Assembly (NCBI GenBank): GCA_002793035.1
Contig: PFPL01000033.1
Span: 1 to 58,853 of the forward strand
DNA from: Candidatus Magasanikbacteria bacterium CG_4_10_14_0_2_um_filter_33_14
GTDB taxonomy: Bacteria; Patescibacteriota; Patescibacteriia; Magasanikbacterales; UBA922
Length of the DNA stretch: 58,853 nucleotides
Direction of reading: 5' to 3'
Part shown: one piece after another, positions 15,864-56,700 of the stretch
How positions within the stretch are numbered: position 1 is the stretch's first letter
Layout: each line of letters begins with the position of its first letter
Translations under genes and position numbers: made by a program
Notes under the pieces: generated by a model
The model's database searches: none
The model's input: only the letters and a program-made list of their open reading frames with translations
Told to the model about the DNA's origin: nothing

Positions 15864-17240
15864 ATGAAATCACTCGAATCAGTAGTCAATTTTGCTAAGC
15901 AAAAAGGTTTTATTTTTCAATCATCAGAAGTCTATGATGGACTTGCTGCTGTCTATGATTTTGGTCCTTTGGGAATTTTGCTAAAAAATAATTTGCAAGA
16001 ATTGTGGTGGAAGGAAATGGTCCAAAGACACAATAATATTTATGGACTTGATGCTGCCATCCTCATGCATCCTCGCGTTTGGGAAGCTAGTGGACATGTG
16101 GCTAGTTTTTCTGATCCACTTGTAGATTGTAAAGAATGTAAGATGCGTCACCGTGCTGATCACTTACTTGAGACTGTCGGAGTAGAAGCTGATGATAAAA
16201 TGGGAATAGAAGTATTAAATAAACTTTTGCAAGAAAATAATGTTGTTTGTCCAAATTGTAAAGGTGAACTCACACCTGCTCGTGATTTCAATCTGATGCT
16301 TGAAACTCAGCTAAGTAAGACTGATGACAGTAGTAAAGTTTATCTTCGTCCAGAAACAGCTCAAGGTATTTATGTCAATTTCAAAAATGTTCAGACTGCT
16401 ACTCGCGCCAAGATTCCTTTTGGTATTGCTCAAGTTGGTAAAGCTTTTCGCAATGAAATCACAACCAAACAATTTATCTTCCGTACCAAAGAATTTTCAC
16501 AAATGGAAATGCAATATTTTGTAAAGCCTGAAACAGCTGAAAAATTGTATGAAGATTGGAAAAGTTCTCGTTTGGCTTGGTGGGAATCTCTAGGATTGAA
16601 AGCTGAAAATCTTCGCTATCACGAACATGAAAAATTGGCTCACTACGCCAAAGCTGCTTATGATGTCGAATACAATTTCCCTTGGGGTTGGAAAGAAATA
16701 GAAGGTCTTCATAACCGTGGAGATTTTGATCTTACTCAACATGAAAAATTTAGTGGCAAAAATTTGAAATATCGTGATCCAGAAACAAATGAAGAATATG
16801 TGCCATATATTATTGAAGCTTCATCAGGACTCGACAGAAATGTCTTCACTCTTCTTGTAGACGCCTATGAAGAGCTAGATGCTAGAAGTGGGGAAGAAGA
16901 TGCTAAACATGAAAAAGAAGTGGTATTGCGTATTCACAAGAGTTTGGCGCCTATCAAGATGGCAATACTGCCACTCTCAAAGAAAGAACCTTTGCAAAAT
17001 ATTTGTAATGAAATCCAAAATACGTTATCCAAAACTTATATGACTCAGTATGATGAGACAGGAAGTATTGGTAAACGTTATAGAAGACAAGACGAAATTG
17101 GTACTCCTTATTGTATTACAGTTGATTTTGATTCACTAGAAGATAAGAAAGTGACTGTACGTGATAGAGATACGATGGAACAGGAGAGAATTGGTATTGA
17201 TGATTTAGAGAAATATTTTGTTGAAAAATTTGTAGTATGA
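15864..17240 (+). CDS. glyQS: glycine--tRNA ligase (class II, alpha2 GlyQS type)
   Basis: FIFQSSEVYDGLAAVYDFGPLG, WEASGHVASFSDPLVDCKECKMRHRAD, YLRPETAQGIYVNFKNV, GIAQVGKAFRNEIT, FRTKEFSQMEMQYF, IEASSGLDRN and the anticodon-binding C-terminus GKRYRRQDEIGTPYCITVD. Confidence 0.96.
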   Translation: MKSLESVVNFAKQKGFIFQSSEVYDGLAAVYDFGPLGILLKNNLQELWWKEMVQRHNNIYGLDAAILMHPRVWEASGHVASFSDPLVDCKECKMRHRADHLLETVGVEADDKMGIEVLNKLLQENNVVCPNCKGELTPARDFNLMLETQLSKTDDSSKVYLRPETAQGIYVNFKNVQTATRAKIPFGIAQVGKAFRNEITTKQFIFRTKEFSQMEMQYFVKPETAEKLYEDWKSSRLAWWESLGLKAENLRYHEHEKLAHYAKAAYDVEYNFPWGWKEIEGLHNRGDFDLTQHEKFSGKNLKYRDPETNEEYVPYIIEASSGLDRNVFTLLVDAYEELDARSGEEDAKHEKEVVLRIHKSLAPIKMAILPLSKKEPLQNICNEIQNTLSKTYMTQYDETGSIGKRYRRQDEIGTPYCITVDFDSLEDKKVTVRDRDTMEQERIGIDDLEKYFVEKFVV

Positions 17241-17482
17241 AATTCTTTTATACATATGTATTAAAGAGTGAAAAAGATGGTAATTTGTATATTGGTTATA
17301 CAAAAAATTTGAAGAATAGATTTGAAGAACATAATAGTGGTTTGGTAAAATCTACAAAGGACAGAAGACCTATGGATCTTGTTTACTATGAAGCTTGCTT
17401 AAATGAAAAAGATGCGATAGCACGTGAAAAGCAATTAAAAACAGGATTTGGTAGAGCTTATCTAAAGAGAAGATTGAGTTAA
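17237..17482 (+). CDS. small GIY-YIG nuclease family protein (YhbQ/UPF0213-like), copy 1
   Basis: FYTYVLKSEKDGNLYIGYTKNLKNRFEEHNSG...AREKQLK has the GIY-(10)-YIG, R and E motifs. Its ATG overlaps the glyQS stop (ATGA at 17237-40). Confidence 0.88.
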   Translation: MKFFYTYVLKSEKDGNLYIGYTKNLKNRFEEHNSGLVKSTKDRRPMDLVYYEACLNEKDAIAREKQLKTGFGRAYLKRRLS

Positions 17483-17552
17483 TAGAGATACTATGCCCGC
17501 CTGCATCGCTATGCTCAAGCATTGCGGGCAGGGAACAAGAAAGAATCTCTAT
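17482..17552 (+). other. GC-rich nested hairpin element downstream of GIY-YIG copy 1
   Basis: Outer stem ATAGAGAT (17482-89) / ATCTCTAT (17545-52). Inner 7-bp stem TGCCCGC (17494-500) / GCGGGCA (17524-30) with a GCAT/ATGC mini-hairpin in the loop. Confidence 0.5.
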
Positions 17553-17601
17553 CGAGAATCTAGAACAATATTTTTCTAGTAAATTTTAATAATTTATTCT
17601 T

Positions 17602-17856
17602 ATGGTAAGAAATCTTCAAGAAGGAGGTCTTGAATATTCTATAATAGATTTTGAATTAAAATTGTTAAGTTTGGTTAAAAAATATCCAGTGTATAGTAAA
17701 GAAGATTTTTTGTGGTGGTCACAACATGTTGAGGAAGATTCTATAAACAATGAAATCTTAAAGATAAAATTTCCTGATGAAAATGAAAGAAAAGAAATAG
17801 TTAAAACTCTTTTAGAATTAAAAAAAATTAGTAAGAAAAAAGATATAATTAATTAG
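17602..17856 (+). CDS. hypothetical protein (84 aa)
   Basis: ORF with a K/E-rich C-terminus and no motif I recognise. It is the first gene of a tightly spaced + strand cluster running to 21656. Confidence 0.55.
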   Translation: MVRNLQEGGLEYSIIDFELKLLSLVKKYPVYSKEDFLWWSQHVEEDSINNEILKIKFPDENERKEIVKTLLELKKISKKKDIIN

Positions 17857-17882
17857 TAATTTTATTTTCTAATCAAAAGCAT

Positions 17883-18149
17883 ATGATGGCTACGCATTTG
17901 GAGTTTAGTAATAATACTGGTGAGTCTGAAAAATTTGATCCTAAAAAACATGAGCTAGATGAAACTAGTTTGTCTGAAATTTTTCGTAAAATGACTTTAG
18001 AACAGCTTTTAGATAAATTAGAAAGTTTAGAAAGTCATTCTATAAATCATGATGAAGCGGTACATAGTATTTCTGCTTTAGATACTCAAATAGATTTATT
18101 AAAAAAAGAAATTGAAAATAAAAAAAAATCAGGAAATAGTTTACACTAA
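17883..18149 (+). CDS. hypothetical coiled-coil protein (88 aa)
   Basis: Heptad-like LEQLLDKLESLES...IDLLKKEIENKKK. It ends 9 nt before the Mur-ligase gene. Confidence 0.55.
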   Translation: MMATHLEFSNNTGESEKFDPKKHELDETSLSEIFRKMTLEQLLDKLESLESHSINHDEAVHSISALDTQIDLLKKEIENKKKSGNSLH

Positions 18150-18158
18150 ATAGTATTT

Positions 18159-19421
18159 ATGAAAATAATTTCAATAACAGGTACCAAAGGTAAGACAACT
18201 GTCACTCGTGCTTTGAGTGAAATAATTTATAAAAGTGGAGAAAATGTTTTACGTGTTGATACAGATGGTCATTATATAAATGAAAAGAGAAAAAGTACTT
18301 TGGAGGACAGTAAAAAACTTTTTATGTTGGTACCAACTGTTTGTCCTGGTAAGTACCTTTTGGATGTAAAAAAATATTTTCCAGATTTTACGGCTGTCTT
18401 TGAAACGGCTATTGGTAGTAGTGGTAGTGCGGGACTTGGTTATGGATTGCATCAGATTGGTATTTTTACCAATATTTTGGAAGATCATTTGAAAGCAAGT
18501 AAAAGATTACAGACACAAGCTGATTTGGCCAAAGCTAAGAGATTTATTTTTAGTAGACTAGACGTAGGAGGAACTGCTATTTTCAATGCTGATGATAAAT
18601 ATGTTTGTTCACAATTAAGCTCTATACCAGAATTTAGAAAACCAATTTATTTTTTGCCTGTTGGCTTTGATTTTAAGTATTTTGATATTGAAAAAAATTT
18701 GAAAAATAATGGTAGTCTTATTACTATTGAAAATGCTTGTGTAGTAGTAAAATCAGCAAAAAAGACTCAAAAAATAATAAAAGTAAATGACGTGAAATGG
18801 ACTTTTGGTGGTAATTTCAAGCCTTCAGTTTATAATCTCATGTTTATTATCGCTGGATTACTTGTATTTAATGGAGGAAAAATAACTAAACAAAATAAAG
18901 AAGATTTAAAAAATTATAAAATGGATAAATTTGGTGGTAGATTGACTCTGTTAGAAAACAAAGAAGGAGTAAAAATTTTAGTTGATTATGCTCATGAAAA
19001 ATTTTCTTTGGTTGAAGTGGCTAAATTGGCTAAGAGTATTGGTAATGGAGAAGTAATAGGTGTAGTCCGTCTAGCACCTGACAGACAAGATGAAATAATT
19101 GCAGAAACAGGTAAATATATCGCCAACAAGTATGATCGTTTTGTTGTTTATGATAAAATAGATGGTGTAAATAGAAAAGAATATAAAGGTAGAAAATCTG
19201 ATTTTAATAGAAAAACTGGAGAAGTTTCTAAAATATTTTACGAAGGTATTTTGAGTAAGAAAAAATCAGACAAAGTGGAAAGAATTTTGGAAGAAAAAAA
19301 AGCTATAAAAAGATCTGCTGAGTTGGCTAAAAAAGGGGATGTCGTAGTTGTGATTTGTGGGGATGATCACAAAAAGACAGTGGAATATGTACAGGATTAT
19401 TTTAAAGCTAAATTTGTATAA
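18159..19421 (+). CDS. Mur ligase family protein lacking the N-terminal substrate domain (cyanophycin-synthetase M-domain-like / PgsB-MurT-like)
   Basis: The P-loop sits at the very N-terminus (ISITGTKGKTTVT). TDGHYI, ETAIGSSGSAGLG, NILEDHL and VDYAHEKFS (Mur DYAHNP-like) follow, with a C-terminal domain carrying RLAPDRQDE. Confidence 0.8.
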   Translation: MKIISITGTKGKTTVTRALSEIIYKSGENVLRVDTDGHYINEKRKSTLEDSKKLFMLVPTVCPGKYLLDVKKYFPDFTAVFETAIGSSGSAGLGYGLHQIGIFTNILEDHLKASKRLQTQADLAKAKRFIFSRLDVGGTAIFNADDKYVCSQLSSIPEFRKPIYFLPVGFDFKYFDIEKNLKNNGSLITIENACVVVKSAKKTQKIIKVNDVKWTFGGNFKPSVYNLMFIIAGLLVFNGGKITKQNKEDLKNYKMDKFGGRLTLLENKEGVKILVDYAHEKFSLVEVAKLAKSIGNGEVIGVVRLAPDRQDEIIAETGKYIANKYDRFVVYDKIDGVNRKEYKGRKSDFNRKTGEVSKIFYEGILSKKKSDKVERILEEKKAIKRSAELAKKGDVVVVICGDDHKKTVEYVQDYFKAKFV

Positions 19422-19425
19422 AATT

Positions 19426-20313
19426 ATGTCAAAAATTAAATTTTATTTGTTTACAGATAGTGAAAAAGATCATAGAATTCGCAGATTCAGGGAAGAATCT
19501 GCAAAAAAGAATATTGATTTTCAAATTGTTAATCTATATAAAATAGTTATTCAAGATAATCAGATAATAGATCAGGAAGGTAATGTCTTAAAAATTAAGA
19601 AAAATGATATTACTTGGATTCTGGCAAATGTGAGTACAGGCTACGTAGTTTCAAAATTTTTAAAAGATAGAAATATACAAGTTTGGCCAAATTTTGAAGC
19701 TGTAGCTTTTGCAGATAAGTTTATAACGAATAGCTTTTTTTCTGGGATACAAGTTCCAACTCCAAAAACTGTTTTTATAAATTCTTATCACATGGATGAT
19801 ATTATAAAAGCCATCGGTGGTTTCCCTTGTATTATAAAAAAGAATATAAGTACTGTTGGAAAATATGTAGAAATTGTAAAAAGTGAAAAAGAAGTATTGC
19901 AATTTATCAAAAATACTTTTGAAATAGCTTCTAAAAATATTTTACCAAATAATCGTATTAGTTTCATGTTGCAAGAATTTGTCAAAGAGGCTAAAGGAAC
20001 TGATTATCGTGTGCTTTGTCTAGATGGTAAAATATTAGGTGTTATAAAACGTACAGCCAAGTCTGGTTTCAAATCAAATATTTCTCTTGGTGGTACAGCA
20101 AAACAAATACCTCTACCTGAAAAAATAAAAAAATATACAAAGAAAATATTAAAAAAAGGAGATATCTTTTATGCGGGTATTGATTTTATAAAAAAAGGAA
20201 ATGAATATTTGGCTATCGAAGTGAATACTTCCGCGCAATTCAAAGGTTTTGAACAAGCTACAAATATCAATGTGGCTGAAAAAATTATTAATAAACTTAT
20301 AGAAAAAAATTAA
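19426..20313 (+). CDS. RimK-type ATP-grasp ligase
   Basis: LQEFVKEAKGTDYRVLCLDGKILGVIKRTAKSGFKSNISLGGTAKQIPLP and AGIDFIKKGNEYLAIEVNTSAQFKGFEQATNINVAEKII parallel the RimK core (QEYI.EA.G.DiR.lVvG..vvaai.R.a..gdFRSNlh.GG). The ATG at 19426 lies 4 nt after the Mur-ligase stop. Confidence 0.85.
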   Translation: MSKIKFYLFTDSEKDHRIRRFREESAKKNIDFQIVNLYKIVIQDNQIIDQEGNVLKIKKNDITWILANVSTGYVVSKFLKDRNIQVWPNFEAVAFADKFITNSFFSGIQVPTPKTVFINSYHMDDIIKAIGGFPCIIKKNISTVGKYVEIVKSEKEVLQFIKNTFEIASKNILPNNRISFMLQEFVKEAKGTDYRVLCLDGKILGVIKRTAKSGFKSNISLGGTAKQIPLPEKIKKYTKKILKKGDIFYAGIDFIKKGNEYLAIEVNTSAQFKGFEQATNINVAEKIINKLIEKN

Positions 20314-20348
20314 ATAATTAATATTGTAATTTAATAATATAAATATAT

Positions 20349-21656
20349 ATGCCTCCAATAGAACCAAACAATGTGGTAAATAGTGTGACTACTACTACCA
20401 AAACTGGTTATTTTAGTCGTATAGGTAATTCTATCAAAGGAATCTTTTTTGGATTTCTTATTTTCATAATTTCTTTTGTAGTACTTTATACAAATGAAGG
20501 TAGAGTAGACAAATCAGATGTAGCTTCTACTGCTGTAGAAATTAGTGCGACAAGTCTAAATACTGATGCTAATCTGGAAAATAAATTGGTACATCTTAAT
20601 GGAGATTTGGTTACAGATAATAAAATTTCTGATGGTATATACTTGCAAGAAAATAATTATTTAGCTTTGACTCGCAAAGTAGAAGTCTATGCTTGGGTAG
20701 AAGAAAGTAGCTCTAAGACAAAAACAAATGTCGGTGGTTCACAAACTACAGATACAACTTATACATATAAAAAAGATTGGGTGTCAGATGCTCCTGATTC
20801 TTCCAAATTTCAATCTACAACGGGTCATGAGAATATTATGAAAACTTTGGACAACAATACTTGGTATGCAAGTAATGCCAAAGTTGGTGTCTATGAAGTA
20901 GAACCTGCAAAATTGACTATGCCTGGATCTACCGGAATTGCTTTGACAAAAGAAAATACTATTTTGCCAGTTGTAATAGCTCCAACTACTACAGCAAAAA
21001 CAGTTCCACAAAATGATTTGATGAAATCTTTGAGTGCTAGTGACGCAGATTTGAATGCCGAATTTGGTACTCCTGCTAAAGTTGTGGAAGAAACTGTAGT
21101 TCCTGAAAAAGTAAAAAATGTAGTGTTGAATGGTAATTATATTTATGTTACTGAAAAAAATGTTAGTGCTCCAACAATAGGTGATATGCGTGTTAGTTAT
21201 AGTGCTGTGACTTCACCTATTTCAGTTACTCTCTTTGGTAGATTGACTGGTAGCAAAATTACTCCGATGACTGATGCTAAGACTGGTGTGGTACTTTATC
21301 GTGCTTTTAGTGGTACTTTCGAAGATGCTCTAGGTACTTTGCATGGTGAATACAAAACTTTACTTTGGATTTTACGTTTAGTTGGTTTCCTTATGATGTG
21401 GATTGGTCTTGGTATGGTATTAGCACCTCTTAGCGTATTGCTCGACGTCTTGCCAATTTTCGGTACTATTAGTCGTAGTGTTGTTGGTCTAATAACGTTT
21501 GTAGTAGCTCTTGTATTATCTATTGTGACTATTATCGTTTCTATGTTTTTACATAATCCATTGGTTTTGATTTTGGTGATTATTGCTGTGGGTGTGTATG
21601 TATTCAAATTGGTGAAAAAAGCAAAACAAAAAACACAAGAAGTAAAAAGTGTTTAA
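20349..21656 (+). CDS. TMEM43/DUF1625-like membrane protein
   Basis: N-terminal TM followed by LYTNEGR (the family NEGR motif), a long extracytoplasmic region and three C-terminal TM helices. Confidence 0.6.
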   Translation: MPPIEPNNVVNSVTTTTKTGYFSRIGNSIKGIFFGFLIFIISFVVLYTNEGRVDKSDVASTAVEISATSLNTDANLENKLVHLNGDLVTDNKISDGIYLQENNYLALTRKVEVYAWVEESSSKTKTNVGGSQTTDTTYTYKKDWVSDAPDSSKFQSTTGHENIMKTLDNNTWYASNAKVGVYEVEPAKLTMPGSTGIALTKENTILPVVIAPTTTAKTVPQNDLMKSLSASDADLNAEFGTPAKVVEETVVPEKVKNVVLNGNYIYVTEKNVSAPTIGDMRVSYSAVTSPISVTLFGRLTGSKITPMTDAKTGVVLYRAFSGTFEDALGTLHGEYKTLLWILRLVGFLMMWIGLGMVLAPLSVLLDVLPIFGTISRSVVGLITFVVALVLSIVTIIVSMFLHNPLVLILVIIAVGVYVFKLVKKAKQKTQEVKSV

Positions 21657-21741
21657 AGTTCATAAAGTAATTAGTGAAAATTTTTTTCTATAAAACTTTA
21701 CAAACTTTTAACTTTACAAACTTTATAAACTATATAAAATT

Positions 21742-23001
21742 ATGTACGAATATTTAGAATTGAAAAATAAAGCAAAAGTATATTTCATACCTTTGTTAGA
21801 TACCAAATCTTTGACAACTCTTGTCATGTATCCAGTAGGCTCTCGTTATGAAGCTGAAAAAATGGCAGGTGTTTCTCATTATGTAGAACATCTTATGTTC
21901 AAGGGTACTAAGAAAAGACCAAACACTTTGAATCTTACTCGTGAGATAGATAGGCTTGGTGCACAGTACAATGCTTTTACCGGCAAAGAATATACAGGTT
22001 ACTATATCAAGGCTGATGCAAAATATTCTGAAGTATCTATGGATATTTTGTCAGATATGCTTTTCAATTCCAAGTTTGACCCAAAAGAAATGGAAAGAGA
22101 AAAAGGACCAATCATCGAAGAAATTAGAATGTACCAGGATAATCCACTTATGAATATTGATAATATTTTTGAAGATGTAATGTATGCGGGATGTTCACTA
22201 GGTCGTGATATTGCAGGTACCGAAGCTCATGTACGTAGTTACAAACGTCCGGATGTTATCAAATATCGTGATACATATTACAGCCCAAACAATATGACAA
22301 TTGTCGTGGCTGGAGCGATTGATGAAAAAGTGAAAGAGCAGGTCAAAAAATATTTTGGTGCTGGCAAAAATAGTGGTGCCAAAAAAAGAGATTTTAAATC
22401 TGCATGTTTTGGACCAATTGAAAAAGATAAAAGAATTGTGGTACAGAAAAAGGATACCGACCAAGTACAACTTATGCTTGGTTTCCCTGGATTTGATTAC
22501 AATGATGATAGAAACTATGCTGAAGGAGTTATGAATACTATTTTGGGTGGATCTATGAGTTCTAGACTTTTTATTCAAATTCGTGAAAGGCGTGGTTTGG
22601 CTTATATGGTTCGTTCTGGTTCTGAAAATTTTCGTGATACAGGGCATGTTTTTGTTAGAGCTGGTCTTGAAGCCAAAAATATTAATAAAGCAATTGCTGT
22701 TATCAAAAAAGAAATTGAGCGTATTTGTGAAAAAGGTGTCAGTAAAAAAGAATTGGCAGATGCTAAGACACATATACGTGGAGCTATGACTTTGTCTCTT
22801 GAAGATTCTAGTGCTCAAGCAAATTATTATGCTAGTGAAGCTTTATTTTCCAAAAATATGGAAGATCCTGAAGAAAGATTAGAAAAGATTGAAAAAATTA
22901 CCAATGAGGATATAATAAAGGTAGCAAAGCAAGTATTCAAATGGAATCAAATGCGTGTTGCTATTATTGGAAATGTAGATAAAAAGGATATTAAATTTTA
23001 A
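21742..23001 (+). CDS. M16 (pitrilysin/insulinase) family zinc peptidase
   Basis: GVSHYVEHLMFKGT is the inverted zinc motif HxxEH. NAFTGKEYTGYY and EREKGPIIEEIRMYQDNP are also present. Confidence 0.9.
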   Translation: MYEYLELKNKAKVYFIPLLDTKSLTTLVMYPVGSRYEAEKMAGVSHYVEHLMFKGTKKRPNTLNLTREIDRLGAQYNAFTGKEYTGYYIKADAKYSEVSMDILSDMLFNSKFDPKEMEREKGPIIEEIRMYQDNPLMNIDNIFEDVMYAGCSLGRDIAGTEAHVRSYKRPDVIKYRDTYYSPNNMTIVVAGAIDEKVKEQVKKYFGAGKNSGAKKRDFKSACFGPIEKDKRIVVQKKDTDQVQLMLGFPGFDYNDDRNYAEGVMNTILGGSMSSRLFIQIRERRGLAYMVRSGSENFRDTGHVFVRAGLEAKNINKAIAVIKKEIERICEKGVSKKELADAKTHIRGAMTLSLEDSSAQANYYASEALFSKNMEDPEERLEKIEKITNEDIIKVAKQVFKWNQMRVAIIGNVDKKDIKF

Positions 23002-32109: not shown

Positions 32110-32382
32110 ATGAATTATTATACCTATATTATTTATAATAAAAAACACGATAAATTTTATATAGGTTCTACGTATAGTTTGAAAAAGCGTATAAATGAAC
32201 ATAAAACTGGTGAAGGTAATTACACTAGTCGCTATGACGGAGAATGGACATTTGTCTATTATGAAAAGCATAATGATAGAAGTGAAGCTGTGCAACGTGA
32301 AAGGTACTTCAAGTCATTAAAAAGTAAAGTATATCTAAAAAGATATATAAAAGAAAAATGCGCGCCTAGCTCAGTTGGTTAG
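32110..32382 (+). CDS. small GIY-YIG nuclease family protein, copy 2 (3' end runs into tRNA-Val)
   Basis: YTYIIYNKKHDKFYIGSTYSLKKRINEHKTG...RERYFK. The RBS GAGGAG (32101-06) is the tail of the tRNA fragment. The last 7 codons (CAPSSVG) and the TAG stop (32380-82) lie inside the tRNA-Val acceptor/D arm. Confidence 0.85.
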   Translation: MNYYTYIIYNKKHDKFYIGSTYSLKKRINEHKTGEGNYTSRYDGEWTFVYYEKHNDRSEAVQRERYFKSLKSKVYLKRYIKEKCAPSSVG

Positions 32383-32433: not shown

Positions 32434-32526
32434 CTGGTCTCCGCCTATGGCTACGCCCAGTAAACTTTTTAAAGTTTACGAGCTGGTTAGATTGGTGGAT
32501 ATTTTTTTACAAAATAATTGGGGGGT

Positions 32527-32769
32527 ATGATTTATTTTGTCTATATTTTGAAATGTAGTGATGAAAAGTATTATACAGGCTTGACTAAAAACATAAATAA
32601 TAGGATTCATCAACATATAAACGGAGAGGTGACATCAACAAAACATAGAAGACCACTAAAGTTAATTTTTTTTAGTGCATTTCCAGATAAGTATTTAGCT
32701 GCAAGTTTTGAACAATATTTGAAAACTAATTCTGGACGAGCTTTTAGAAATAAGCATTTTATAAAGTAA
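32527..32769 (+). CDS. small GIY-YIG nuclease family protein, copy 3
   Basis: MIYFVYILKCSDEKYYTGLTKNINNRIHQHINGE...SFEQYLK. The ATG at 32527 aligns with the starts of the two paralogues; the track start is the TTG at 32518. Confidence 0.85.
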   Translation: MIYFVYILKCSDEKYYTGLTKNINNRIHQHINGEVTSTKHRRPLKLIFFSAFPDKYLAASFEQYLKTNSGRAFRNKHFIK

Positions 32770-43002: not shown

Positions 43003-44529
43003 ATGTTTAAAAAAATATTTTTATTTTTAGCTGTAGTTTTTTATTCTTTTTTTCCATTTATTACCTCTGCCCAAAATGTAGAGGATCTTGTGGTTGAAGG
43101 AAATTATTCAGCTGTTATTTTTTCTGAAGATTATGTACAAGTTGGTAAAAAAATAATCTTTGATTCTAGTAAATCAAGTTTGCCAACTACTGTAAAAAAT
43201 GCTGTTTATTATTGGAGATTTGGTGATGGTTCCTATGAATATGCTGATGAAGTAGTACATGACTATAAAAAGGTTGGGACGTACAAAGTTAATTTGGACA
43301 TTTCTTATATAAATGAACAAGGACAGAAAAAAACTCTTTCTAGTGAAAAGTCTGTTTTTGTTTATGATACAAGAGCTCTCATGATTGTAGATGAAAAAAG
43401 TCAGTCTGATATTGCTATGATGAAAGATCAAGCTAGAAATGAAGGAGTTGCTTTGGAAGTTTTATCACCTGTAGAAGATATGGGATTTTTTTCAGAAGAT
43501 GTTTTGATAAAGCTTATTAGTGAACATAATCAGTATGTAAAAAATTCTGATTTGATTTTATTTTATACTAAGTCACTTCGTGGTTTACAAGCTTTTACTC
43601 AATATTTTCAATCTTTAAATGATGTTGATAAAGAATTGATAAAGAATAAAATGTTTATTACCTTTACAGAAGGGAATATTGATGTAGTTACTCATGGTGT
43701 TTATCAAAATTATCAAATAATAAAACCTGAGTATATTTTACTCACCAGACCAGAAGCCTTGAGTGTTGTCTTGAATGCCAAAGATATTAGTGAAATAGAA
43801 ACTTCACTTTTTGGTAGAGGTATCGAGCTTAAAAAAGTTGATAATACAAGTGGCAAAAGTAAATTTTATATATTGTCTACTTTAGTTAATTATTTTATAG
43901 AAAAGGGTGTGCCTGCTGATAGTGTTTATCTTATTTTGATTATTCCTTTCTTGGCTTTTGTTATTATCTTTTTTAGAAATGTCGTGGGTATCAATACTTT
44001 TGGAGTATTTACACCTATTATTGTTACTATAGCTTTTTATACTTTAGGTCTTTATTTGGGATTACTGACTTTCTTTTTTGCTGTTATTGTAAGCCAAATT
44101 ATGAAGTATGCTTTTGAAAAAATAGAACTTTTGTATTTGTCCAAGGTAGCTTTGAATTTGTCTTTCATTTCTATTTCCTTTTTGTTTTTGATTGCTATAA
44201 TTTTGAAATTTAATTTAGCATTTTCTTTGACTGGAGCTATATTTCCAATGTTAGTGATGACTACACTTTCAGAAAAATTTATGGAAGCAAAATCTGAAAT
44301 AGGACTTAAGACTGCTTTATTTGGAGTCTTTGAGACTTTGTTTGTGGTTTTGTTATCTTATTATTTTATACTTTGGTCAAGTTTCAACAATTTGCTAATA
44401 TCTTGGCCAGAAATTATTATAACACCTATTCTTGCTATCTTAATACTTGGTAAATTTACAGGTTTACGTATTAGTGAGTATATTAGATTTAGAAGTTTAT
44501 TTGTAAATCATACAGGAGAAGAAGAATAA
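43003..44529 (+). CDS. signal peptide, PKD-like ectodomain and 7TM (7TM_transglut/UUP1-like) membrane protein
   Basis: YYWRFGDGSYEYADEVVHDYKKVGTYKVNLDIS is a PKD signature. The C-terminal half has seven hydrophobic helices beginning GINTFGVFTPIIVTIAFYTLGL, as in the 7TM modules that pair with RimK-related ATP-grasp genes. Confidence 0.65.
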   Translation: MFKKIFLFLAVVFYSFFPFITSAQNVEDLVVEGNYSAVIFSEDYVQVGKKIIFDSSKSSLPTTVKNAVYYWRFGDGSYEYADEVVHDYKKVGTYKVNLDISYINEQGQKKTLSSEKSVFVYDTRALMIVDEKSQSDIAMMKDQARNEGVALEVLSPVEDMGFFSEDVLIKLISEHNQYVKNSDLILFYTKSLRGLQAFTQYFQSLNDVDKELIKNKMFITFTEGNIDVVTHGVYQNYQIIKPEYILLTRPEALSVVLNAKDISEIETSLFGRGIELKKVDNTSGKSKFYILSTLVNYFIEKGVPADSVYLILIIPFLAFVIIFFRNVVGINTFGVFTPIIVTIAFYTLGLYLGLLTFFFAVIVSQIMKYAFEKIELLYLSKVALNLSFISISFLFLIAIILKFNLAFSLTGAIFPMLVMTTLSEKFMEAKSEIGLKTALFGVFETLFVVLLSYYFILWSSFNNLLISWPEIIITPILAILILGKFTGLRISEYIRFRSLFVNHTGEEE

Positions 44530-44533
44530 ATTT

Positions 44534-46882
44534 ATGAAATTTTTTGAAAGAGCAAATGCTATTTTGGGGATGAATGCTCGTAATTTATTGTATATCGGGC
44601 GTTATAATACCAAACAAAGTAAAAAATTTGCTGATGACAAAATTTATACAAAAAGTTTTTTGATGACTCGTGGAGTAGGCGTGGCAAAAATTTATAATAC
44701 TATAAAAAGACATAAAGAACTTTCAGATATCAATCCCAAAAGTTTACCTGCTAGTTTTGTTATAAAACCTAATCATGGTTTTGGTGGTGAAGGTATTATT
44801 GTGATTAGTGAACACAAAGGATTGAAATTCAAAGATGTCATTGGCAATCAGTATAATTGGCGTGATTTGTATTTGCACATGGTTTCTATTTTAGATGGTA
44901 AGTATTCAATATCAGGTTTATCTGATCAAATAATTATAGAGGAGATGCTAAGACCACATAAAGATTTGTTACCTTTTTCTGAAGTTGGTTTGCCGGATAT
45001 TAGAGTTATTGTTTTCAATTATGTTCCTATAATGGCTATGTTGCGTCTACCTACCTTTGAGTCTCATGGTAAGGCAAATTTGCATTTAGGTGGTGTTGGA
45101 GTAGGAATAGACATTGCTACTGGTAAAGCTAATTTTGCTGTACATCATAATAAATTTATAAAAAAATTACCAAATGGAGAAAAAATAAGAAATATTCAGC
45201 TACCTTTGTGGGATGATATTTTGATTATGGCTTCAAAAGCTCAAAAAGCTAGTCAGGTAAAATTTTTGGCAGTAGATTTGGTACTTAGTAAAACTGGTGT
45301 AAATATTCTTGAACTAAATGCTAGAGCAGGTTTGGGTATTCAAATTGCTAATCAGATACCATTACAGCATAGATTAAGGAAGGTTGAAGATTTGAAAGTT
45401 TCTAGTTCTGAAAAAGGTGTAGAAATAAGTAAAGCACTTTTTAGTGCTGTAACAAAAAAACCAGAAAAGAAAGGTAAAAACAAATTGGAAAAAAAAGTTA
45501 TTGGTATTTTCGAAGAAATAGATATTTTGAATACTCCAAATACTTCTGTTTTGACAAAAATAGATCCACATGGTAATGAAGTATTGTATGATGAAACATT
45601 GCCAGGTATTGACAAACTCAAGCGATATTCTGATATTTTGATCAGAGGTGAAAGAATACGTTTTCATTTCAAAAAGGCTGATTTATCAGCTAGCCCTTAT
45701 AAAGTAGTGATTGGTGGTAAAGCTTTAAATAATTTTTTTATTGATCCAAATCAAAAAGATATTGTAAATTCCAATGAAAAAAATTCAGAAAGTATTAGCG
45801 AAAAAATTATAAAAAATATAGATAAAAAACTTTATTTTACCGATAAGGAATTAAAAATTTTGTCTCATATAAAACCTTTGAATTTCTTGGAAGAAAAAAA
45901 TAAATTTTTGGCTACAAAAGATTTTTCACCTAAGTTTATTTACAAAAAACCAGACATGAATTTCACTGGACTTTTGCGTGATATTAGTGCTTTGCCAAAA
46001 AATGTGAATCACCCTCTTTATCCTTTGTTTATAAAAAAAATAGATGAGATGATCTCAAAGATTCAACTTTTGGATTCTGTGGGGACAGATGAATATAGTG
46101 AATCATCTGAAGAATTGTATGGTAATGTAAGTGATGAATTGTTTGAAAAAGCAAAACAATTTATAATTGATAATCCTGTAAAAGAGGATAATAGTAAGGA
46201 AATGACTGCCAAAATTATTTTCAAACATTTTGAATATTTTTTAGAGATAAATAGATTAAATGATTGGAAAGTGAAATTGTCAGAAACAGCACAATCTATA
46301 TCAGTAGATCCTTATAAGAAAACAATTTATATAAATAAAAAATCTAAGAGAAGTAAAAACAAACTCAAAGCTCTTTTGATACATGAGATTGGGACTCATA
46401 TTTATCGTTATGGTAATGGTACTTTACAAGATTACAGAATTTTTAAGAGAGGTACTGCTGGGTACTTGGATACTGAAGAGGGGTTGGCTATTTATAATCA
46501 AAGAGAATTGGGGCTAAATTTAGGTATGAAAGATTTGTGGCCTGCTTATTTGATAGTGGCTATTTATCATGCTAGGACTATGTCTTTTTTGGATTTGTTT
46601 CATTATTTGCAAAAAGAATACAATCTAAAAGATAGCAAGGCTTGGTCTGCTTGTTATCGTGCTAAGAGAGGTTTGTCTGATACTTCTCAACTAGGAGGTT
46701 CTACTCGTGACGCTATTTATTTTAGAGGTTATTTAAAAGTAGTAGATTTCTTATCAGAAGATAAAGAACAAAGATTAAAAGATTTGTATAGTGGAAAGAT
46801 ATGTATTGAAGATATTAAATATTTAGAATACTTATCAAAACCAAAGATAAAATATTTTGGTTTTGAAAATTTTGATTTTTAG
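44534..46882 (+). CDS. fusion of alpha-L-glutamate-ligase-like ATP-grasp and DUF1704 (QEGLA-motif, HExxH) peptidase-like domain
   Basis: N-terminus AILGMNARNLLYIGRYNTKQSKKFADDKIYTKSFL...VIKPNHGFGGEGIIV...LELNARAGLGIQIAN is RimK-related ATP-grasp. The C-terminus has LLIHEIGTHIYRYGNG (HExxH) and GYLDTEEGLAIYNQ (QEGLA-type motif). Confidence 0.75.
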   Translation: MKFFERANAILGMNARNLLYIGRYNTKQSKKFADDKIYTKSFLMTRGVGVAKIYNTIKRHKELSDINPKSLPASFVIKPNHGFGGEGIIVISEHKGLKFKDVIGNQYNWRDLYLHMVSILDGKYSISGLSDQIIIEEMLRPHKDLLPFSEVGLPDIRVIVFNYVPIMAMLRLPTFESHGKANLHLGGVGVGIDIATGKANFAVHHNKFIKKLPNGEKIRNIQLPLWDDILIMASKAQKASQVKFLAVDLVLSKTGVNILELNARAGLGIQIANQIPLQHRLRKVEDLKVSSSEKGVEISKALFSAVTKKPEKKGKNKLEKKVIGIFEEIDILNTPNTSVLTKIDPHGNEVLYDETLPGIDKLKRYSDILIRGERIRFHFKKADLSASPYKVVIGGKALNNFFIDPNQKDIVNSNEKNSESISEKIIKNIDKKLYFTDKELKILSHIKPLNFLEEKNKFLATKDFSPKFIYKKPDMNFTGLLRDISALPKNVNHPLYPLFIKKIDEMISKIQLLDSVGTDEYSESSEELYGNVSDELFEKAKQFIIDNPVKEDNSKEMTAKIIFKHFEYFLEINRLNDWKVKLSETAQSISVDPYKKTIYINKKSKRSKNKLKALLIHEIGTHIYRYGNGTLQDYRIFKRGTAGYLDTEEGLAIYNQRELGLNLGMKDLWPAYLIVAIYHARTMSFLDLFHYLQKEYNLKDSKAWSACYRAKRGLSDTSQLGGSTRDAIYFRGYLKVVDFLSEDKEQRLKDLYSGKICIEDIKYLEYLSKPKIKYFGFENFDF

Positions 46883-53776: not shown

Positions 53777-56700
53777 TTAATTTACGATTAGTCTACAAAA
53801 TTTTATATAACGATCAAATAAAGAAAGACACATATTTTTATCTTCTATAACTTCGTATGATTTTATAATATTTTGGAATCCACCATGTCCGCTATTTTTA
53901 AATAAATAGTTTAATGCTTCTTGTCTTGTATTTATGTCTTTTAGAGCAATTGCAAGTGGTAAATGAAAATATTTAGAATTGCTTGTCCAAAAATCTGTGT
54001 GAGGAAAATTGTTTTTCAATAAGTAATCTAAAAGTAATTTAAGATTTTTATTTATTTCAAAAGTTTTCTGTATAAGAATTTCCCATGATCTATAAGTTTT
54101 TAATATAATTCCATTATTATAGTTATCTAATTTTTTATATTTACCCGTTATTTGCATTGATGTTTTGCAAGCTTTAACCTCCTTTATAAATTGTTCTTCT
54201 GAAATATTTCTTTTTTTCTTTAAATAAGAATTCTCATCGGTATTTTGTTTATCAAATTCTAAATTAAAAAGTTTATTGTATTTTTTGCATAATTTCTGAA
54301 AGCGTAGTTTTTCATTTCCAAAATCATCATCTCTAAGATAATAATCTATTTGTTGTTTTTGAATTTCTTCGATTTGTTTGTATGATTTTTGAAAAGCCTC
54401 TTTTTGCTCTTCTTCTGTGTATAGATTTGATTCTGTAATTTCAAGGTAAATTATAAATTTCTGTTCATAGTAATCTGATCTAGGTTTACCTTCATGCCCA
54501 TAATCTTTTCTATACTCACTCATCTCTTCCTCTATTTTTTCTACTTCTACTCCATTTTTTACTTTTGCTTTTAAAATAGATGTAATGACTTGATTTGAAA
54601 AATTATGATAACCCTTAGCCTCAATTAATTCTTTTTTAAATTGTTCTGCAAGTTCAATATTTGTGTTTGCAATAATTTCAATCACCAAATAGGGACCTCT
54701 CCATGTATGATCCCCGTCAGTAATTTGAACAACATGCATTGTTAGATCAAAAACTTCTCTCGCATAACTTTCTTTTTTCTTATTATCCACCCAGTTGTTT
54801 CTCCAAATCACTTCAAATGCATCAGTCAATAAATAACTCACGATTGTATCTTTGTGCCAACCATGTCTCAAAATTCCTTCTAAAACTGCTTTTGTGAAAT
54901 AATATTTAGCTAGTTCTTGATCAATTTTTGAGAAAAACATACTGAGATCAAAACATCTATCAACATAAGAAGGAAAATCATCGTCCCAATTTGATAATTG
55001 ATCTTCAATTAATGTTAAATCATTTTTACTTACTATTTTGGAAAATCTACTTGGAATAATACGGTTGAGTTGCAAGAAAAAACTAAACGGAATAATATTA
55101 TTTTCTTCCTTAATTAATATTTTTTTTAGTTGTAATAGTTTTTCGTCATCCTTTTCAAGAGAAAATATATTAGCCCAAAAAAATGACATATCAACCTTTA
55201 GGTATTTTCCATAATATGTTCCTTCAAAATAAAAATTGATGTAACGAATATAATCTCTCACAATTGATTCAATCTCTTTTTCTCCCTTCAATAGTGAAAT
55301 AAAATCATTAAATAATGCAGAATATAATCCAAGCTCATTATAGTAACGAAATGGGTGTCCATCTTGTTTTTTTAAAAACTTCTCAAAGGAAAATGTATCA
55401 AGTATGTATGAAACAATGGCAAAATCTCTATTTTTCTTGTTGTGAGTTAAGTCAAAGTGATCCGCATTTTTTAGTTTTTCAAACACTGGATTTACGGCTT
55501 CCTTCTCCTTTTTTGATAGCTTTATATTAAAATATCTTTTGTAAAAAAGAATAAATACATTTCTTTCGTTAATTTCTTGAGAAAACTCGTTGATAAACGA
55601 TTTGATTTTTTTATGTATGGATTTTGATTGTGCAAAAATTGGCAAATATTCAATAGATTTGAAAATTTCTAAAAGTGCCACAAATTCATATTCATCAAAA
55701 TCATCTATCAGCTTATAAAAATCATTTCTTTTTTCTTTTAAACAAACACGAAAAAATGATTTTACTAACTTTTCTTTTCCATCTTCCTTGTAGCTCCAGT
55801 CATTACTATTAGAAAAATTTTTATAATTTTCTCTAACTAAACTATCAAAAAGATCTTTTACTGTTTCATTTTTTATTACCAATCTATAATAAATCCAGTT
55901 TTCAAACTGGTTCCAAAATGGATCTTCTAATCGGTCATTTTCTTTAAGATTCTCACTAAATTTGTATTGGTCATACAAATTCATGATATTTTGTAGTTGT
56001 TGTCTGAATTCTTTTGCAATCTCTGTATTGTCTGATTTCCATAATAAAACAACGATCTCTATTAGAGAAGCAACTCCATTACCCCAAACACTTTTTAAAT
56101 AATCATTTGAACGATAATCGTTTTTGTCTTTGTTCCATTTTTCAAACTTTTTTTCCAATTCTTGAAAATCAATAGATATTTTTTCGTTAATTTGTAAATT
56201 TTCGTTTTCAAACAATTCATTAAAAATACTTTTATCTTGCGCAACTAATGCAGGAATGAATTCGCTTGAATTCATGTAATAATCATCATCAACTCCAAAC
56301 CCTTTGTGTTTGCCTAAATAAACATCTATAAGATTTAATTCAACTAATCCAGGAAGATTATTTTCTTTCTCGTATTCCTTTCTAAGGTATGGACGAAAAA
56401 GATTTTCAAGATACTCACGATTAGAAAGTATTTTTAATTCTCTGATAATGCTGGGATTTTTCTCATATTCACTTTTGAGTTTCTGAGTAAAAAAATATTC
56501 TTGGTATCTTCTATGCTGATAAATATATGATGTTTTTAATTCCGAGCTCGTAGCATATGAATTTTCAAAGAATAAATCAGCAAGATAGCTAATAATGGAA
56601 TTTGTGGCTTCATAGTCTAAACGATCAAATCTATTAAGAATAATTTTTTGAAGTTCATCTTGTGAAAAACGAAATTGAAACTTCTTGTGAAATTCAAATG

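Follow-up and report, generated by a model that had tools for sequence, protein, structure and literature searches.

A 58,853-nt stretch of DNA from Candidatus Magasanikbacteria (the window) carries a Mur-family ligase gene directly followed by an ATP-grasp ligase gene, and raises the question of what two such enzymes make together and which neighbours work with them. The first-pass annotation read positions 17602-21656 as an operon of five genes, encoding a possible split cyanophycin-synthetase-like polymer or peptide-tailing system. The five plus-strand ORFs, their spacing of 26, 9, 4 and 35 nt and all the quoted motifs are present in the ORF list and translations (Table 1).

Table 1 Features of the window discussed in the text
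Feature	Position	Strand	Basis	Remark
Small ORF 1, 84 aa	17602..17856	+	ORF list	adjoins pair, membership unsupported
Small ORF 2, 88 aa	17883..18149	+	ORF list	adjoins pair, probably no conserved gene
Gene 3, stand-alone CphA-M-like Mur-family ligase, 420 aa	18159..19421	+	Pfam, TIGR02068, AlphaFold2/Foldseek	
Gene 4, divergent RimK/LysX-clade ATP-grasp ligase, 295 aa	19426..20313	+	Pfam, rimK_fam, AlphaFold2/Foldseek	
Gene 5, TMEM43-family membrane protein, 435 aa	20349..21656	+	Pfam TMEM43 177.7 bits	neighbour, not conserved partner
7TM membrane protein (RloB-like)	43003..44529	+	Pfam 7TM_transglut 100.7 bits, PKD	probable remote partner
ATPgrasp_ST (RloC-like) fused to MATCAP/QEGLA metallocarboxypeptidase-like domain	44534..46882	+	Pfam	probable remote partner

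The two ligases

The translation of gene 3 contains ISITGTKGKTT (P-loop G8-T14), TDGHYI, ETAIGSSGSAGLG, EDHL and DYAHEK. Pfam places Mur_ligase_M at residues 6-149 and Mur_ligase_C at 260-398 and finds no domain N-terminal to Mur_ligase_M, which bears out the earlier view that the enzyme lacks a substrate domain at its N-terminus. Gene 3 reaches 201 bits on TIGR02068, the NCBIfam model of cyanophycin synthetase (positions 481-860 of 862), against 90 bits on MurE and 24 bits on FolC. Its best PDB sequence matches are CphA1 without exception, and its AlphaFold2 model (pLDDT 91.7) retrieves CphA1 (7lgj/7wae) on top in Foldseek (TM 0.80, E 7e-27), with MurE behind (E 6e-20). The M domain of CphA1 (N + G + M; PDB 7LG5, 7WAC) aligns with gene 3 end to end. 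In the alignment, K12, T13, T35, E82, R261 and H279 correspond to TeCphA1 K499, T500, T522, E558, R731 and H748, and D109/H110 to SuCphA1 D585/H586; these shared positions are ATP, Mg and catalytic residues. Across alignment A1, K12, E82, D109, H110, R261 and H279 are invariant, T35 is nearly so, and T13 is Thr or Ser.

At E <= 1e-30 there are 284 representatives. Stand-alone proteins of ~420 aa, about 100 in number, score above 200 bits and rank ahead of full-length CphA1 proteins. The family of gene 3 amounts to roughly 100 clusters at 50% identity, and its source-named members come from CPR groups without exception. In neighbour-joining trees, the only kind built, all bootstraps (100/100 and 80/80) separate the family together with the CphA1 M domains from the other Mur ligases, MurE included; the stand-alone clade is recovered in 62/80 and the CphA clade in 67/80. 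The family is a sister clade of the CphA1 M domains, at ~26% identity and not nested inside them, and gene 3 has in these domains its nearest relatives by structure and phylogeny. Gene 3 is an intact, free-standing homologue of the CphA1 M domain and is predicted to be catalytically competent.

Other Mur-type ligases are less close. MurE, MurC-F and Mpl share the central and C-terminal superfamily fold, the P-loop and the DH motif, but gene 3 is without their UDP-MurNAc-binding N-terminal domain, scores much lower on their models and stands apart from them in every bootstrap replicate. MurT and PgsB/CapB, raised earlier as alternatives, likewise have no N domain for UDP binding, and use substrates other than nucleotides. 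Gene 3, however, scores 13.6 bits on the PgsB model (cutoff 222.7), and has neither a MurT_C domain in Pfam nor a GatD partner. Sequence, predicted fold and phylogeny agree in grouping gene 3 with the CphA1 M domains, away from MurC-F, MurT, FolC and PgsB.

Gene 4 was listed as an ORF at 19357-20313; an in-frame ATG at 19426 gives a protein of 295 aa, a start backed by homologues of 293-298 aa. About 127 homologues are found at E <= 1e-5, and all source names among them are CPR groups. The translation contains QEFVKEAKGTDYRVL...RTAKSGFKSNISLGGTA and scores 105.9 bits on the Pfam RimK ATP-grasp domain, 142.3 bits on rimK_fam (cutoff 143.4) and only 24.8 bits on TIGR02068. With its AlphaFold2 model (pLDDT 93.0), Foldseek returns RimK 7qys/7qyr first (TM 0.80-0.82), then ArgX/LysX, and CphA1 is not among the top 50 fold matches. 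The enzyme is therefore RimK-type, as first annotated, and belongs to the RimK/LysX clade, not to the CphA G-domain lineage, so the pair is not a simple fission of CphA. The ATP-grasp and Mur-like pairing does resemble that of G with M, but here the enzymes are separate polypeptides, the ATP-grasp gene follows the Mur-like gene, and the 58.8-kb window yielded no CphA N domain, G-like gene or RimB-like gene. The earlier interpretation is borne out in part.

Gene 4 shares the fold and the ATP/Mg residues of RimK, but is only 25-28% identical to it, and the poly-Glu contacts S7, R8, R64 and S68 are replaced by T, D, W and N. For this reason it is not an S6-RimK orthologue, and its acceptor site differs from that of the RimK acting on ribosomal protein S6.

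Conserved partners and bystanders

Neighbourhoods were counted at 39 related loci, namely family genes with >=2.5 kb of flank on both sides; the unit counted is the locus and not the independent evolutionary origin. In 35 of the 39, the Mur-like gene has an ATP-grasp ligase no more than three genes away: a RimK, ATPgrasp_ST or G-like ligase in 33, and an L-amino-acid-ligase-type ATP-grasp immediately downstream in two more. None was found within three genes in 52 control loci of generic (MurE-type) Mur ligases. Ligase-labelled genes account for 66 of 334 genes within three positions of the Mur-like gene, versus 2 of 406 beyond. Four family genes are without an ATP-grasp neighbour (both tandem copies in L007, plus L008 and L137). 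The adjacency is thus far beyond chance. It could largely reflect inherited synteny within CPR lineages, but since it holds while gene order, partner subfamily and strand vary from lineage to lineage, synteny alone can hardly explain it. With gene 3 grouping with the CphA1 M domains and the pair co-conserved, the doubts voiced in the first-pass annotation, of a plain peptidoglycan or folate enzyme or of genes that relatives do not keep together, are not borne out.

The partners include RimK with RimB, RimK-like, RloC-like ATPgrasp_ST, L-amino-acid-ligase-type and CphA G-domain-like enzymes. The link runs one way only: in three loci (L164-L166), gene-4-type ligases occur in 7TM/ATPgrasp_ST/PBP1A clusters without a Mur-like gene, which makes the Mur-like enzyme an optional add-on and not an obligate partner.

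The other ORFs beside the pair fare differently in the nearest relative, L086 (92.4% identical to the window in DNA). ORF 1, seen only in these two, matches no Pfam or NCBIfam family and differs by 7 synonymous and 9 non-synonymous codons, giving no clear sign of purifying selection. ORF 2, also without a significant Pfam or NCBIfam match, has its frame destroyed in L086 by two deletions of 17 and 2 nt. The corresponding synonymous and non-synonymous changes are 29 and 12 for gene 3 and 32 and 13 for gene 4. The five ORFs are real, but the number of genes is probably below five. A TMEM43 gene accompanies the pair in 2 of the 39 loci, the window and L086. ORF 1, ORF 2 and the TMEM43 gene are best taken as bystanders, and neither the suggestion that the small proteins serve as primers or substrates nor the inclusion of TMEM43 in the system is upheld.

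Likelier partners, in our judgement probable ones, are two genes that stand 22 kb from the pair, out of the earlier reader's sight. The first encodes the 7TM protein, which scores 61.7 bits on NCBIfam RloB and by eye has a hydrophobic, signal-peptide-like N-terminus. The product of the second scores 203 bits on Pfam ATPgrasp_ST, 133.6 bits on MATCAP, 250 bits on TIGR02291 ('alpha-L-glutamate ligase-like') and 147 bits on TIGR02421. In relatives 72-75% identical (L087, L089), a 7TM homologue is the second gene upstream of the Mur-like gene, and directly upstream is an ATPgrasp_ST ligase fused instead to a RimB/RloA-type retropepsin domain; in L090 the 7TM gene is the third upstream. These genes recall RloABC of Pseudomonas aeruginosa (retropepsin, 7TM inactive transglutaminase and ATP-grasp), whose genetics are known (PMC12239564): the relatives' genes match RloB, RloC and the RloA/RimB-type retropepsin, and the window's genes match RloB (7TM_transglut) and RloC (ATPgrasp_ST/TIGR02291). 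The differences are that the Rlo-like scores fall far under the NCBIfam cutoffs, ligase and peptidase form one fused protein, in which the window has a MATCAP-like peptidase and not a retropepsin, and additional ATP-grasp and Mur-like ligases are present. The Mur-like module is tied to both RimB/RimK-type and RloABC-type systems.

A proposed chemistry and its alternatives

We propose that genes 3 and 4 may form a two-enzyme, ATP-dependent module for non-ribosomal amide bonds, a reading to which we give about an even chance. By analogy with the G and M reactions of CphA1 (PMC9262961, PMC9427784) and with RimK, the ATP-grasp enzyme would activate a peptide chain at its C-terminal alpha-carboxylate and couple an acidic amino acid to it. 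Next, a free carboxylate of the chain, most likely that of the new side chain, would be phosphorylated by the Mur-like enzyme and joined in an amide bond to a second amino acid or an amine. The outcome would be a branched, cyanophycin-like chain.

Alternatively, a particular protein, ribosomal protein S6 or some other, receives a C-terminal tail from the ATP-grasp enzyme, and this tail is capped or branched by the Mur-like enzyme. RimK, LysX and ArgX, the enzymes structurally closest to gene 4, all work on a protein acceptor at its C-terminal residue. RimK makes poly-alpha-Glu, and RimB is a poly-Glu endopeptidase that stimulates RimK (PMC11957791, PMC10092738) and trims such tails (PMC11957791); the texts of this literature that we searched make no mention of a Mur-type ligase. 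In Saccharibacteria, the Mur-like gene sits in a RimB-RimK operon, including RimB-RimK fusions, and the RimK scores 318 bits on the S6 ligase equivalog (cutoff 331 bits). Gene 4, however, has lost the residues that hold poly-Glu, no candidate acceptor was identified, the C-termini of the adjacent small ORFs are not acidic, one of these ORFs is not conserved, and relatives do not share the acidic C-terminus that the 7TM protein has in the window. We regard this explanation as unlikely.

Somewhat less probable still is a genuine split cyanophycin synthetase, in which the RimK-like enzyme polymerises aspartate and the Mur-like enzyme adds arginine, giving ordinary cyanophycin as a store of nitrogen or arginine. 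The closeness of gene 3 to CphA1 M domains in sequence, fold and tree speaks for it, as do five loci (L091-L095) in which the Mur-like gene directly follows a stand-alone ligase of the CphA G-domain-like type (TIGR02068 positions 166-472, with scores of up to 172 bits), a true split G+M. Automated pipelines label family members 'cyanophycin synthetase', an annotation reported for 5 of 21 Saccharimonadia MAGs in a preprint that found no canonical cyanophycinase in those genomes (10.64898/2026.09.16.751625). The saccharibacterial partner is moreover a RimK of the orthodox glutamate-specific type with its poly-Glu-binding residues intact, the window partner is RimK-like and not G-like, the N domain was not found, and the family lies beside the CphA1 M domains, not within them.

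We hold it similarly improbable that the ligases, in an Rlo-like system that adjoins PBP1A in relatives, build or modify a wall-associated peptide, the Mur-like enzyme acting on a muropeptide-like carboxylate, as MurE, Mpl and MurT do. In Parcubacteria and Moranbacteria relatives the cluster is flanked by RuvC on one side and a class A penicillin-binding protein on the other, but this PBP1A adjacency may be mere synteny and is absent from the window, and saccharibacterial loci have neither a 7TM nor a PBP neighbour. The N-terminal PKD domain of the partner 7TM protein is predicted by eye, after the signal-peptide-like start, to be extracellular, and Pseudomonas rloABC mutants show morphology, ampicillin and osmotic phenotypes (PMC12239564). 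An N-terminal domain is missing from MurT too, but gene 3 is clearly nearer to CphA M than to MurE and lacks MurT_C, and the L005 contig carries a separate MurT/GatD pair. Least probable, and very much so, is that the ligases lengthen a glutamate tail on a small molecule or a cofactor, in the manner of folate, F420 or methanopterin, or that their functions are unrelated and only synteny makes them adjacent: gene 4 also scores 102 bits on MptN and 68 bits on CofF, both adding alpha-Glu to cofactors, and FolC is a Mur-ligase superfamily member, but the FolC score of gene 3 is low and the adjacency persists through changing gene orders, partners, strands and lineages.

Returning to the branched-chain module, we suggest that in the window's lineage the pair would belong with the Rlo-like set, now separated to 43003-46882, in which case its product may be handled at the cell envelope and not stored in granules. 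The pairing of a CphA-M-like ligase with an ATP-grasp ligase is kept across CPR bacteria and, by analogy with CphA1 and RimK, probably builds a branched amino-acid chain of an undescribed kind.

Identity of the two ligases

The locus consists of five closely spaced ORFs with intergenic gaps of 26, 9, 4 and 35 nt, in a window that is AT-rich (G+C ~31%). Every ORF, gap and motif that the first-pass annotation quoted for it was found in our ORF calls and translations. The internal ATG used for gene 4 gives the protein the length of its homologues. Housekeeping genes flank the locus (glycyl-tRNA synthetase and triose-phosphate isomerase, by eye; GIY-YIG; M16 peptidase). A promoter and terminator scan of 17200-21900 returned matches at the level of shuffled expectation in AT-rich DNA, and PADLOC matched none of seven proteins to defence systems. 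A hairpin between the GIY-YIG gene and ORF 1 is kept in L086, the nearest related locus; no T-run follows it, and it has no Rfam match.

Features of the ligase locus and of other parts of the window
Feature	Position	Strand	Length	Basis or content
GIY-YIG-type ORF, small, stand-alone	17237-17482	+		Pfam
Hairpin, G+C-rich	17496-17533	+		-20.9 kcal/mol, z = -2.5
ORF 1	17602-17856	+	84 aa	No Pfam family
ORF 2	17883-18149	+	88 aa	No Pfam family
Gene 3	18159-19421	+	420 aa	Pfam Mur_ligase_M and Mur_ligase_C
Gene 4	ORF 19357-20313, ATG inside at 19426	+	295 aa	Pfam RimK ATP-grasp domain
Gene 5	20349-21656	+	435 aa	Pfam TMEM43
GIY-YIG-type ORF, small, stand-alone	32110-32382	+		By eye
GIY-YIG-type ORF, small, stand-alone	32518-32769	+		By eye
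RloB-like membrane protein	43003-44529	+		PKD and 7TM_transglut; hydrophobic, signal-peptide-like N-terminus (by eye)
ATPgrasp_ST and MATCAP/QEGLA-type metallocarboxypeptidase fusion	44534-46882	+		TIGR02291, 250 bits (far under cutoff)
Long ORF	53777-58021	-	1414 aa	

Gene 3 aligns to TIGR02068, the NCBIfam model of cyanophycin synthetase (CphA1), over model positions 481-860 of 862 with 201 bits against a cutoff of 850 bits. This stretch is the M domain, end to end. Four CphA1 enzymes are the only strong PDB sequence matches of gene 3. An AlphaFold2 model built from a 14-sequence alignment (pLDDT 91.7, pTM 0.90) was searched with Foldseek, which ranked CphA1 first (7lgj, TM 0.80, E 7e-27), followed by MurE (E 6e-20). 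The likeness to the CphA M domain named in the first-pass annotation is thereby borne out. The P-loop spans residues 8-14, and Pfam places no domain ahead of it.

Experiments or structures point to key M-domain residues in the CphA1 enzymes of Trichodesmium (P-loop Lys499, Thr500, Thr522, Glu558, Arg731 and His748; PMC9427784) and Synechocystis (Asp585/His586; PMC9262961). Their counterparts in gene 3 are K12, T13, T35, E82, R261, H279 and D109/H110. Across the family alignment, K12, E82, D109, H110, R261 and H279 are invariant, T35 is nearly so, and T13 is either Thr or Ser. Gene 3 thus has the Mur-like M domain of CphA1 with an intact ATP/Mg site and catalytic Asp-His pair. With its CphA1-like sequence and fold and its retained catalytic residues, gene 3 looks like an active enzyme, predicted to be an ATP-dependent amide ligase.

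Gene 4 is a RimK-type ATP-grasp protein, as first annotated: besides the Pfam domain, its rimK_fam score of 142.3 bits falls just short of the cutoff (143.4), and its AlphaFold2 model (pLDDT 93.0) best matches RimK structures (TM 0.80-0.82), followed by ArgX and LysX. CphA1 is absent from its best 50 fold matches. The proposal of a split CphA therefore holds for the M-type half and fails for the G domain, since the TIGR02068 score of gene 4 is 24.8 bits and its rimK_fam score 142.3 bits.

Compared with the Pseudomonas and E. coli enzymes, gene 4 keeps the nucleotide- and metal-binding residues K141, E178, R189, N213, E260 and N262. In P. aeruginosa RimK, the poly-Glu acceptor is contacted by S7, R8, S14, R64 and S68 (PMC10092738); gene 4 has T, D, R, W and N there. 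The related loci L086, L087, L089 and L090 share D, R, W and N with the window, and L096 comes near this pattern with E at the R8 position. The RimK partners found in Saccharibacteria conserve the poly-Glu contact residues. Judged by these residues, gene 4 is a RimK-clade ligase, probably with another acceptor.

A stand-alone family and its neighbours

A word-indexed protein search with gene 3 returned 688 relatives at E <= 1e-5. Among the 120 matches listed, lengths are ~400-450 aa, and all members with an organism name belong to the candidate phyla radiation (CPR; Parcubacteria, Moranbacteria or Saccharibacteria). Their source annotations read "Mur ligase family protein", "UDP-N-acetylmuramyl tripeptide synthase" or "cyanophycin synthetase". 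In a profile search against 1.84 billion cluster representatives, 284 matched at E <= 1e-30. Some 100 of them, stand-alone and ~420 aa long, exceed 200 bits, and full-length CphA1 (~880 aa, matched at residues 480-865) starts only under ~177 bits.

We then built two neighbour-joining trees. In the first, with the family, the M domains of the four PDB CphA1 enzymes and MurE-type outgroups, all 100 bootstraps recovered the family and the CphA1 group as well as their union. The second drew on 83 stand-alone representatives, 43 CphA1-type sequences and 8 MurE outgroups; of its 80 bootstrap replicates, all recovered the union, 62 the stand-alone clade and 67 the CphA clade. As read from these distance-based trees, with CphA sampled as returned by the profile search, the stand-alone family is the sister group of the sampled CphA1 M domains and not a recent CphA1 fragment. 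The same profile search returned two proteins of ~600-645 aa (P0213, P0219) in which the CphA N domain is joined straight to an M domain, with no G domain detectable; they may be mis-called ORFs. To our knowledge, this architecture is undescribed for CphA. One 972-aa protein, P0202, carries two Mur-like modules.

To count neighbours, about 70 metagenomic loci were fetched with family-specific patterns, together with a few named genomes; ORFs were called and neighbours labelled. The counted set comprises 39 family genes, each with 2.5 kb or more of flank on either side, and neighbours were taken within three genes. A RimK-type ligase is a neighbour in 27/39 loci, as is a RimB-type retropepsin; ATPgrasp_ST ligases and CphA G-like ligases occur in 9/39 each, and 7TM_transglut proteins in 8/39. 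At least one RimK-type, ATPgrasp_ST or G-like ligase lies within three genes in 33/39 loci, and two further loci (L115, L120) have an ATP-grasp_4 or L-amino-acid-ligase-type enzyme immediately downstream. Only the tandem pair in L007 (7935-10471), L008 and L137 have no ATP-grasp neighbour. Ligase-labelled genes make up 66/334 within three positions vs 2/406 beyond. None of 52 ordinary Mur-ligase control loci has such a neighbour; these are mostly MurE-type loci from a contig scan with full-length alignment that used generic Mur P-loop patterns and returned two true family loci and otherwise nearly all MurE-type.

The Mur-like and ATP-grasp genes are thus co-conserved in relatives, as the first-pass annotation required of its proposal. 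Because gene orders, strands and partner subfamilies vary, the association is more than a single inherited arrangement. The loci are, however, not independent events. Three remoter gene-4-type ligases (L164, L165, L166) lie in clusters without any Mur-like gene, in the order RuvC, 7TM_transglut, ATPgrasp_ST (with RimB), one to three more ATP-grasp ligases and PBP1A. Since such clusters occur, the Mur-like enzyme of Parcubacteria is an optional additional ligase of a variable multi-ligase cluster. The three belong to Parcubacteria/Moranbacteria, and their ligase content differs by lineage. A 469-aa protein of L164 in the Mur-like position was considered and is unrelated to the family (hhalign probability 0.15%).

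Layouts in relatives and Rlo-like genes of the window

Three layouts recur. In layout (a), from Saccharibacteria, DnaJ is followed by a 350-aa gene in some loci, then by the Mur-like gene, RimB and RimK, the last two fused in some loci. This RimK is orthodox (298 bits to PDB 7qyr; 318 bits on the S6-ligase equivalog vs a cutoff of 331; poly-Glu contacts kept). Layout (b), of Moranbacteria type, begins with 7TM_transglut and an ATPgrasp_ST fused to a RimB/RloA-like retropepsin, and continues with up to two more RimK-like ligases, a ~320-aa ligase, the Mur-like gene and PBP1A. Among NCBIfam models, that ~320-aa ligase fits the G domain of cyanophycin synthetase best (positions 166-472, at most 172 bits). 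Such free-standing G-like ligases occur in L091-L095, L106, L112, L117, L147, L148 and L154. In L091-L095 the G-like gene lies directly upstream of the Mur-like gene, in the G-then-M order of CphA1 and without an N domain; these are true split G+M pairs.

Layout (c), found in L087, L089 and L090, reads 7TM_transglut, ATPgrasp_ST-retropepsin, Mur-like and RimK-like, with PBP1A next in L087. These three loci hold a full RloABC-type triad (7TM, ATPgrasp_ST, retropepsin) beside the Mur-like gene, and their Mur-like proteins are among the closest to gene 3 (72-75% identity). The window lacks the two upstream genes of layout (c) at 17.6 kb and has them 22 kb downstream, where a 7TM_transglut gene and an ATPgrasp_ST gene adjoin (43003-46882), both scoring far under NCBIfam cutoffs. 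The peptidase domain of the second has an HExxH motif (HEIGTH) where relatives carry the RimB/RloA retropepsin; no retropepsin or RimB-like gene was found within 58.8 kb. Having a ligase and a C-terminal peptidase in a single polypeptide is reminiscent of the tubulin tyrosination cycle. The acidic end of the 7TM protein (...HTGEEE) was considered as a RimK-type acceptor and rejected, being absent in ten homologues from related loci.

ORF 1 and ORF 2 sit where the layout (c) upstream genes have been lost. They had been proposed as primers or substrates; we reject them as carrier or primer proteins because their homologues occur in L086 only (92.4% DNA identity to the window), 17-nt and 2-nt deletions destroy the ORF 2 frame there, and neither C-terminus is acidic. 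Between the window and L086, ORF 1 has 7 synonymous vs 9 non-synonymous changes, gene 3 has 29 vs 12 and gene 4 has 32 vs 13. The TMEM43 gene, also listed with the system, is dropped from it: it is a neighbour in just 2/39 loci and lies 3' of the pair in the window and L086 only.

Elsewhere in the window, two of the GIY-YIG-type ORFs (those identified by eye) adjoin tRNA-Val and tRNA-Thr genes. The GC skew changes sign at ~51.6-53 kb, where genes pass from the plus to the minus strand, a convergence that resembles a replication terminus.

Possible chemistry and significance

In CphA1, Asp is attached to the C-terminal backbone carboxylate by the ATP-grasp G domain; its side-chain carboxylate is next phosphorylated by the M domain and joined to Arg (PMC9262961, PMC9427784). 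The product of RimK is alpha-linked poly-glutamate, free or on S6, and its synthesis is stimulated by RimB, an endopeptidase of poly-Glu (PMC11957791). The rloABC genes act in one pathway that affects envelope-related phenotypes (PMC12239564). In all contexts of the family, the ATP-grasp enzyme would be expected to build an acidic alpha-linked chain, usually in the company of a peptidase able to cleave chains of this kind. A CphA-M-type ligase would most simply amidate a free carboxylate on that chain, which would give a branched product; the peptidase may supply primers, like the N domain of CphA1. The window pair is likely a cooperating two-ligase peptide-building module, and by analogy the specific chemistry proposed for it is plausible. 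We give this explanation of the pair, taken as a whole, an even chance of being correct.

Several rival explanations were weighed. Ordinary cyanophycin as the product, an Asp polymer that carries Arg on every side chain, would suit the M-type half; Pfam finds no CphA N domain (PF18921, Cyanophycin_syn) among the five gene products, and neither a CphA G-like gene nor a second Mur-type gene was found within 58.8 kb. Tailing of protein C-termini would suit the RimK clade of gene 4, which scores 70 bits on the S6-ligase equivalog PRK10446 (cutoff 331). Wall-peptide chemistry would go with the PBP1A genes of some relatives. Gene 3 lacks the MurC-F-type N-terminal UDP-MurNAc-binding domain (Pfam) and MurT_C (DUF1727), and the window has no GATase (GatD) neighbour; L005 has a MurT/GatD pair separate from its family gene. 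The alternatives PgsB/CapB and MurT named in the first-pass annotation fall away, with 13.6 bits on the PgsB model TIGR04012 (cutoff 222.7). So does clustering with MurC-F or FolC: the best MurE model gives 90 bits and FolC 24, and MurE split off in all bootstraps. This FolC score and the varied gene orders speak against cofactor tailing or adjacency by synteny alone.

It is tempting to ask whether the CPR widely has a second, new cyanophycin-type biopolymer, synthesised by CphA-M-like enzymes with their RimK-family partners and either used for amino-acid storage or associated with the envelope; we regard this as a tentative reading and rather unlikely. Under it, the backbone might be poly-alpha-glutamate or a mixed acidic chain, to whose side chains amino acids are attached by amide bonds. 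CphA1 would then have an unfused ancestral state, preserved in some lineages as free-standing G-like and M-like genes.

Full-text searching turned up no paper with "cyanophycin synthetase" and "Candidate Phyla Radiation" together. In the titles and abstracts found for RimK, Mur ligase, cyanophycin and ATP-grasp, the pairing does not occur; the 2009 classification of ATP-grasp amidoligases (PMC3268129), which lies outside this coverage, may mention a Mur-ligase association. The passages of two RimK/RimB papers covered by a term search do not mention Mur ligase. A 2026 preprint lists a "cyanophycin synthetase" annotation in 5/21 Saccharimonadia MAGs, without analysis, and found no canonical cyanophycinase in them (10.64898/2026.09.16.751625). 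So far as these searches show, neither the stand-alone CphA-M-like family nor its coupling to RimK-, RimB- and Rlo-type genes has been described. Both nevertheless recombine enzyme kinds already known.

For 420-aa proteins of this family, neither pipeline label, "cyanophycin synthetase" or "UDP-N-acetylmuramyl tripeptide synthase", is justified. We know of no characterised enzyme other than CphA1 that joins ATP-grasp and Mur-type ligases for a branched amino-acid polymer. Here its Mur-type half is a free protein family, common in the CPR and recombined with RimK, RimB and Rlo-type components, and the family supplies testable partners for RloB and RloC proteins. CPR organisms are noted for minimal metabolism. 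Should the pair prove to make a polymer, the product would be a new natural poly-amino acid and its synthesis a rare biosynthetic capacity for such organisms, and the finding would inform how CphA1 was assembled from separate ligases.
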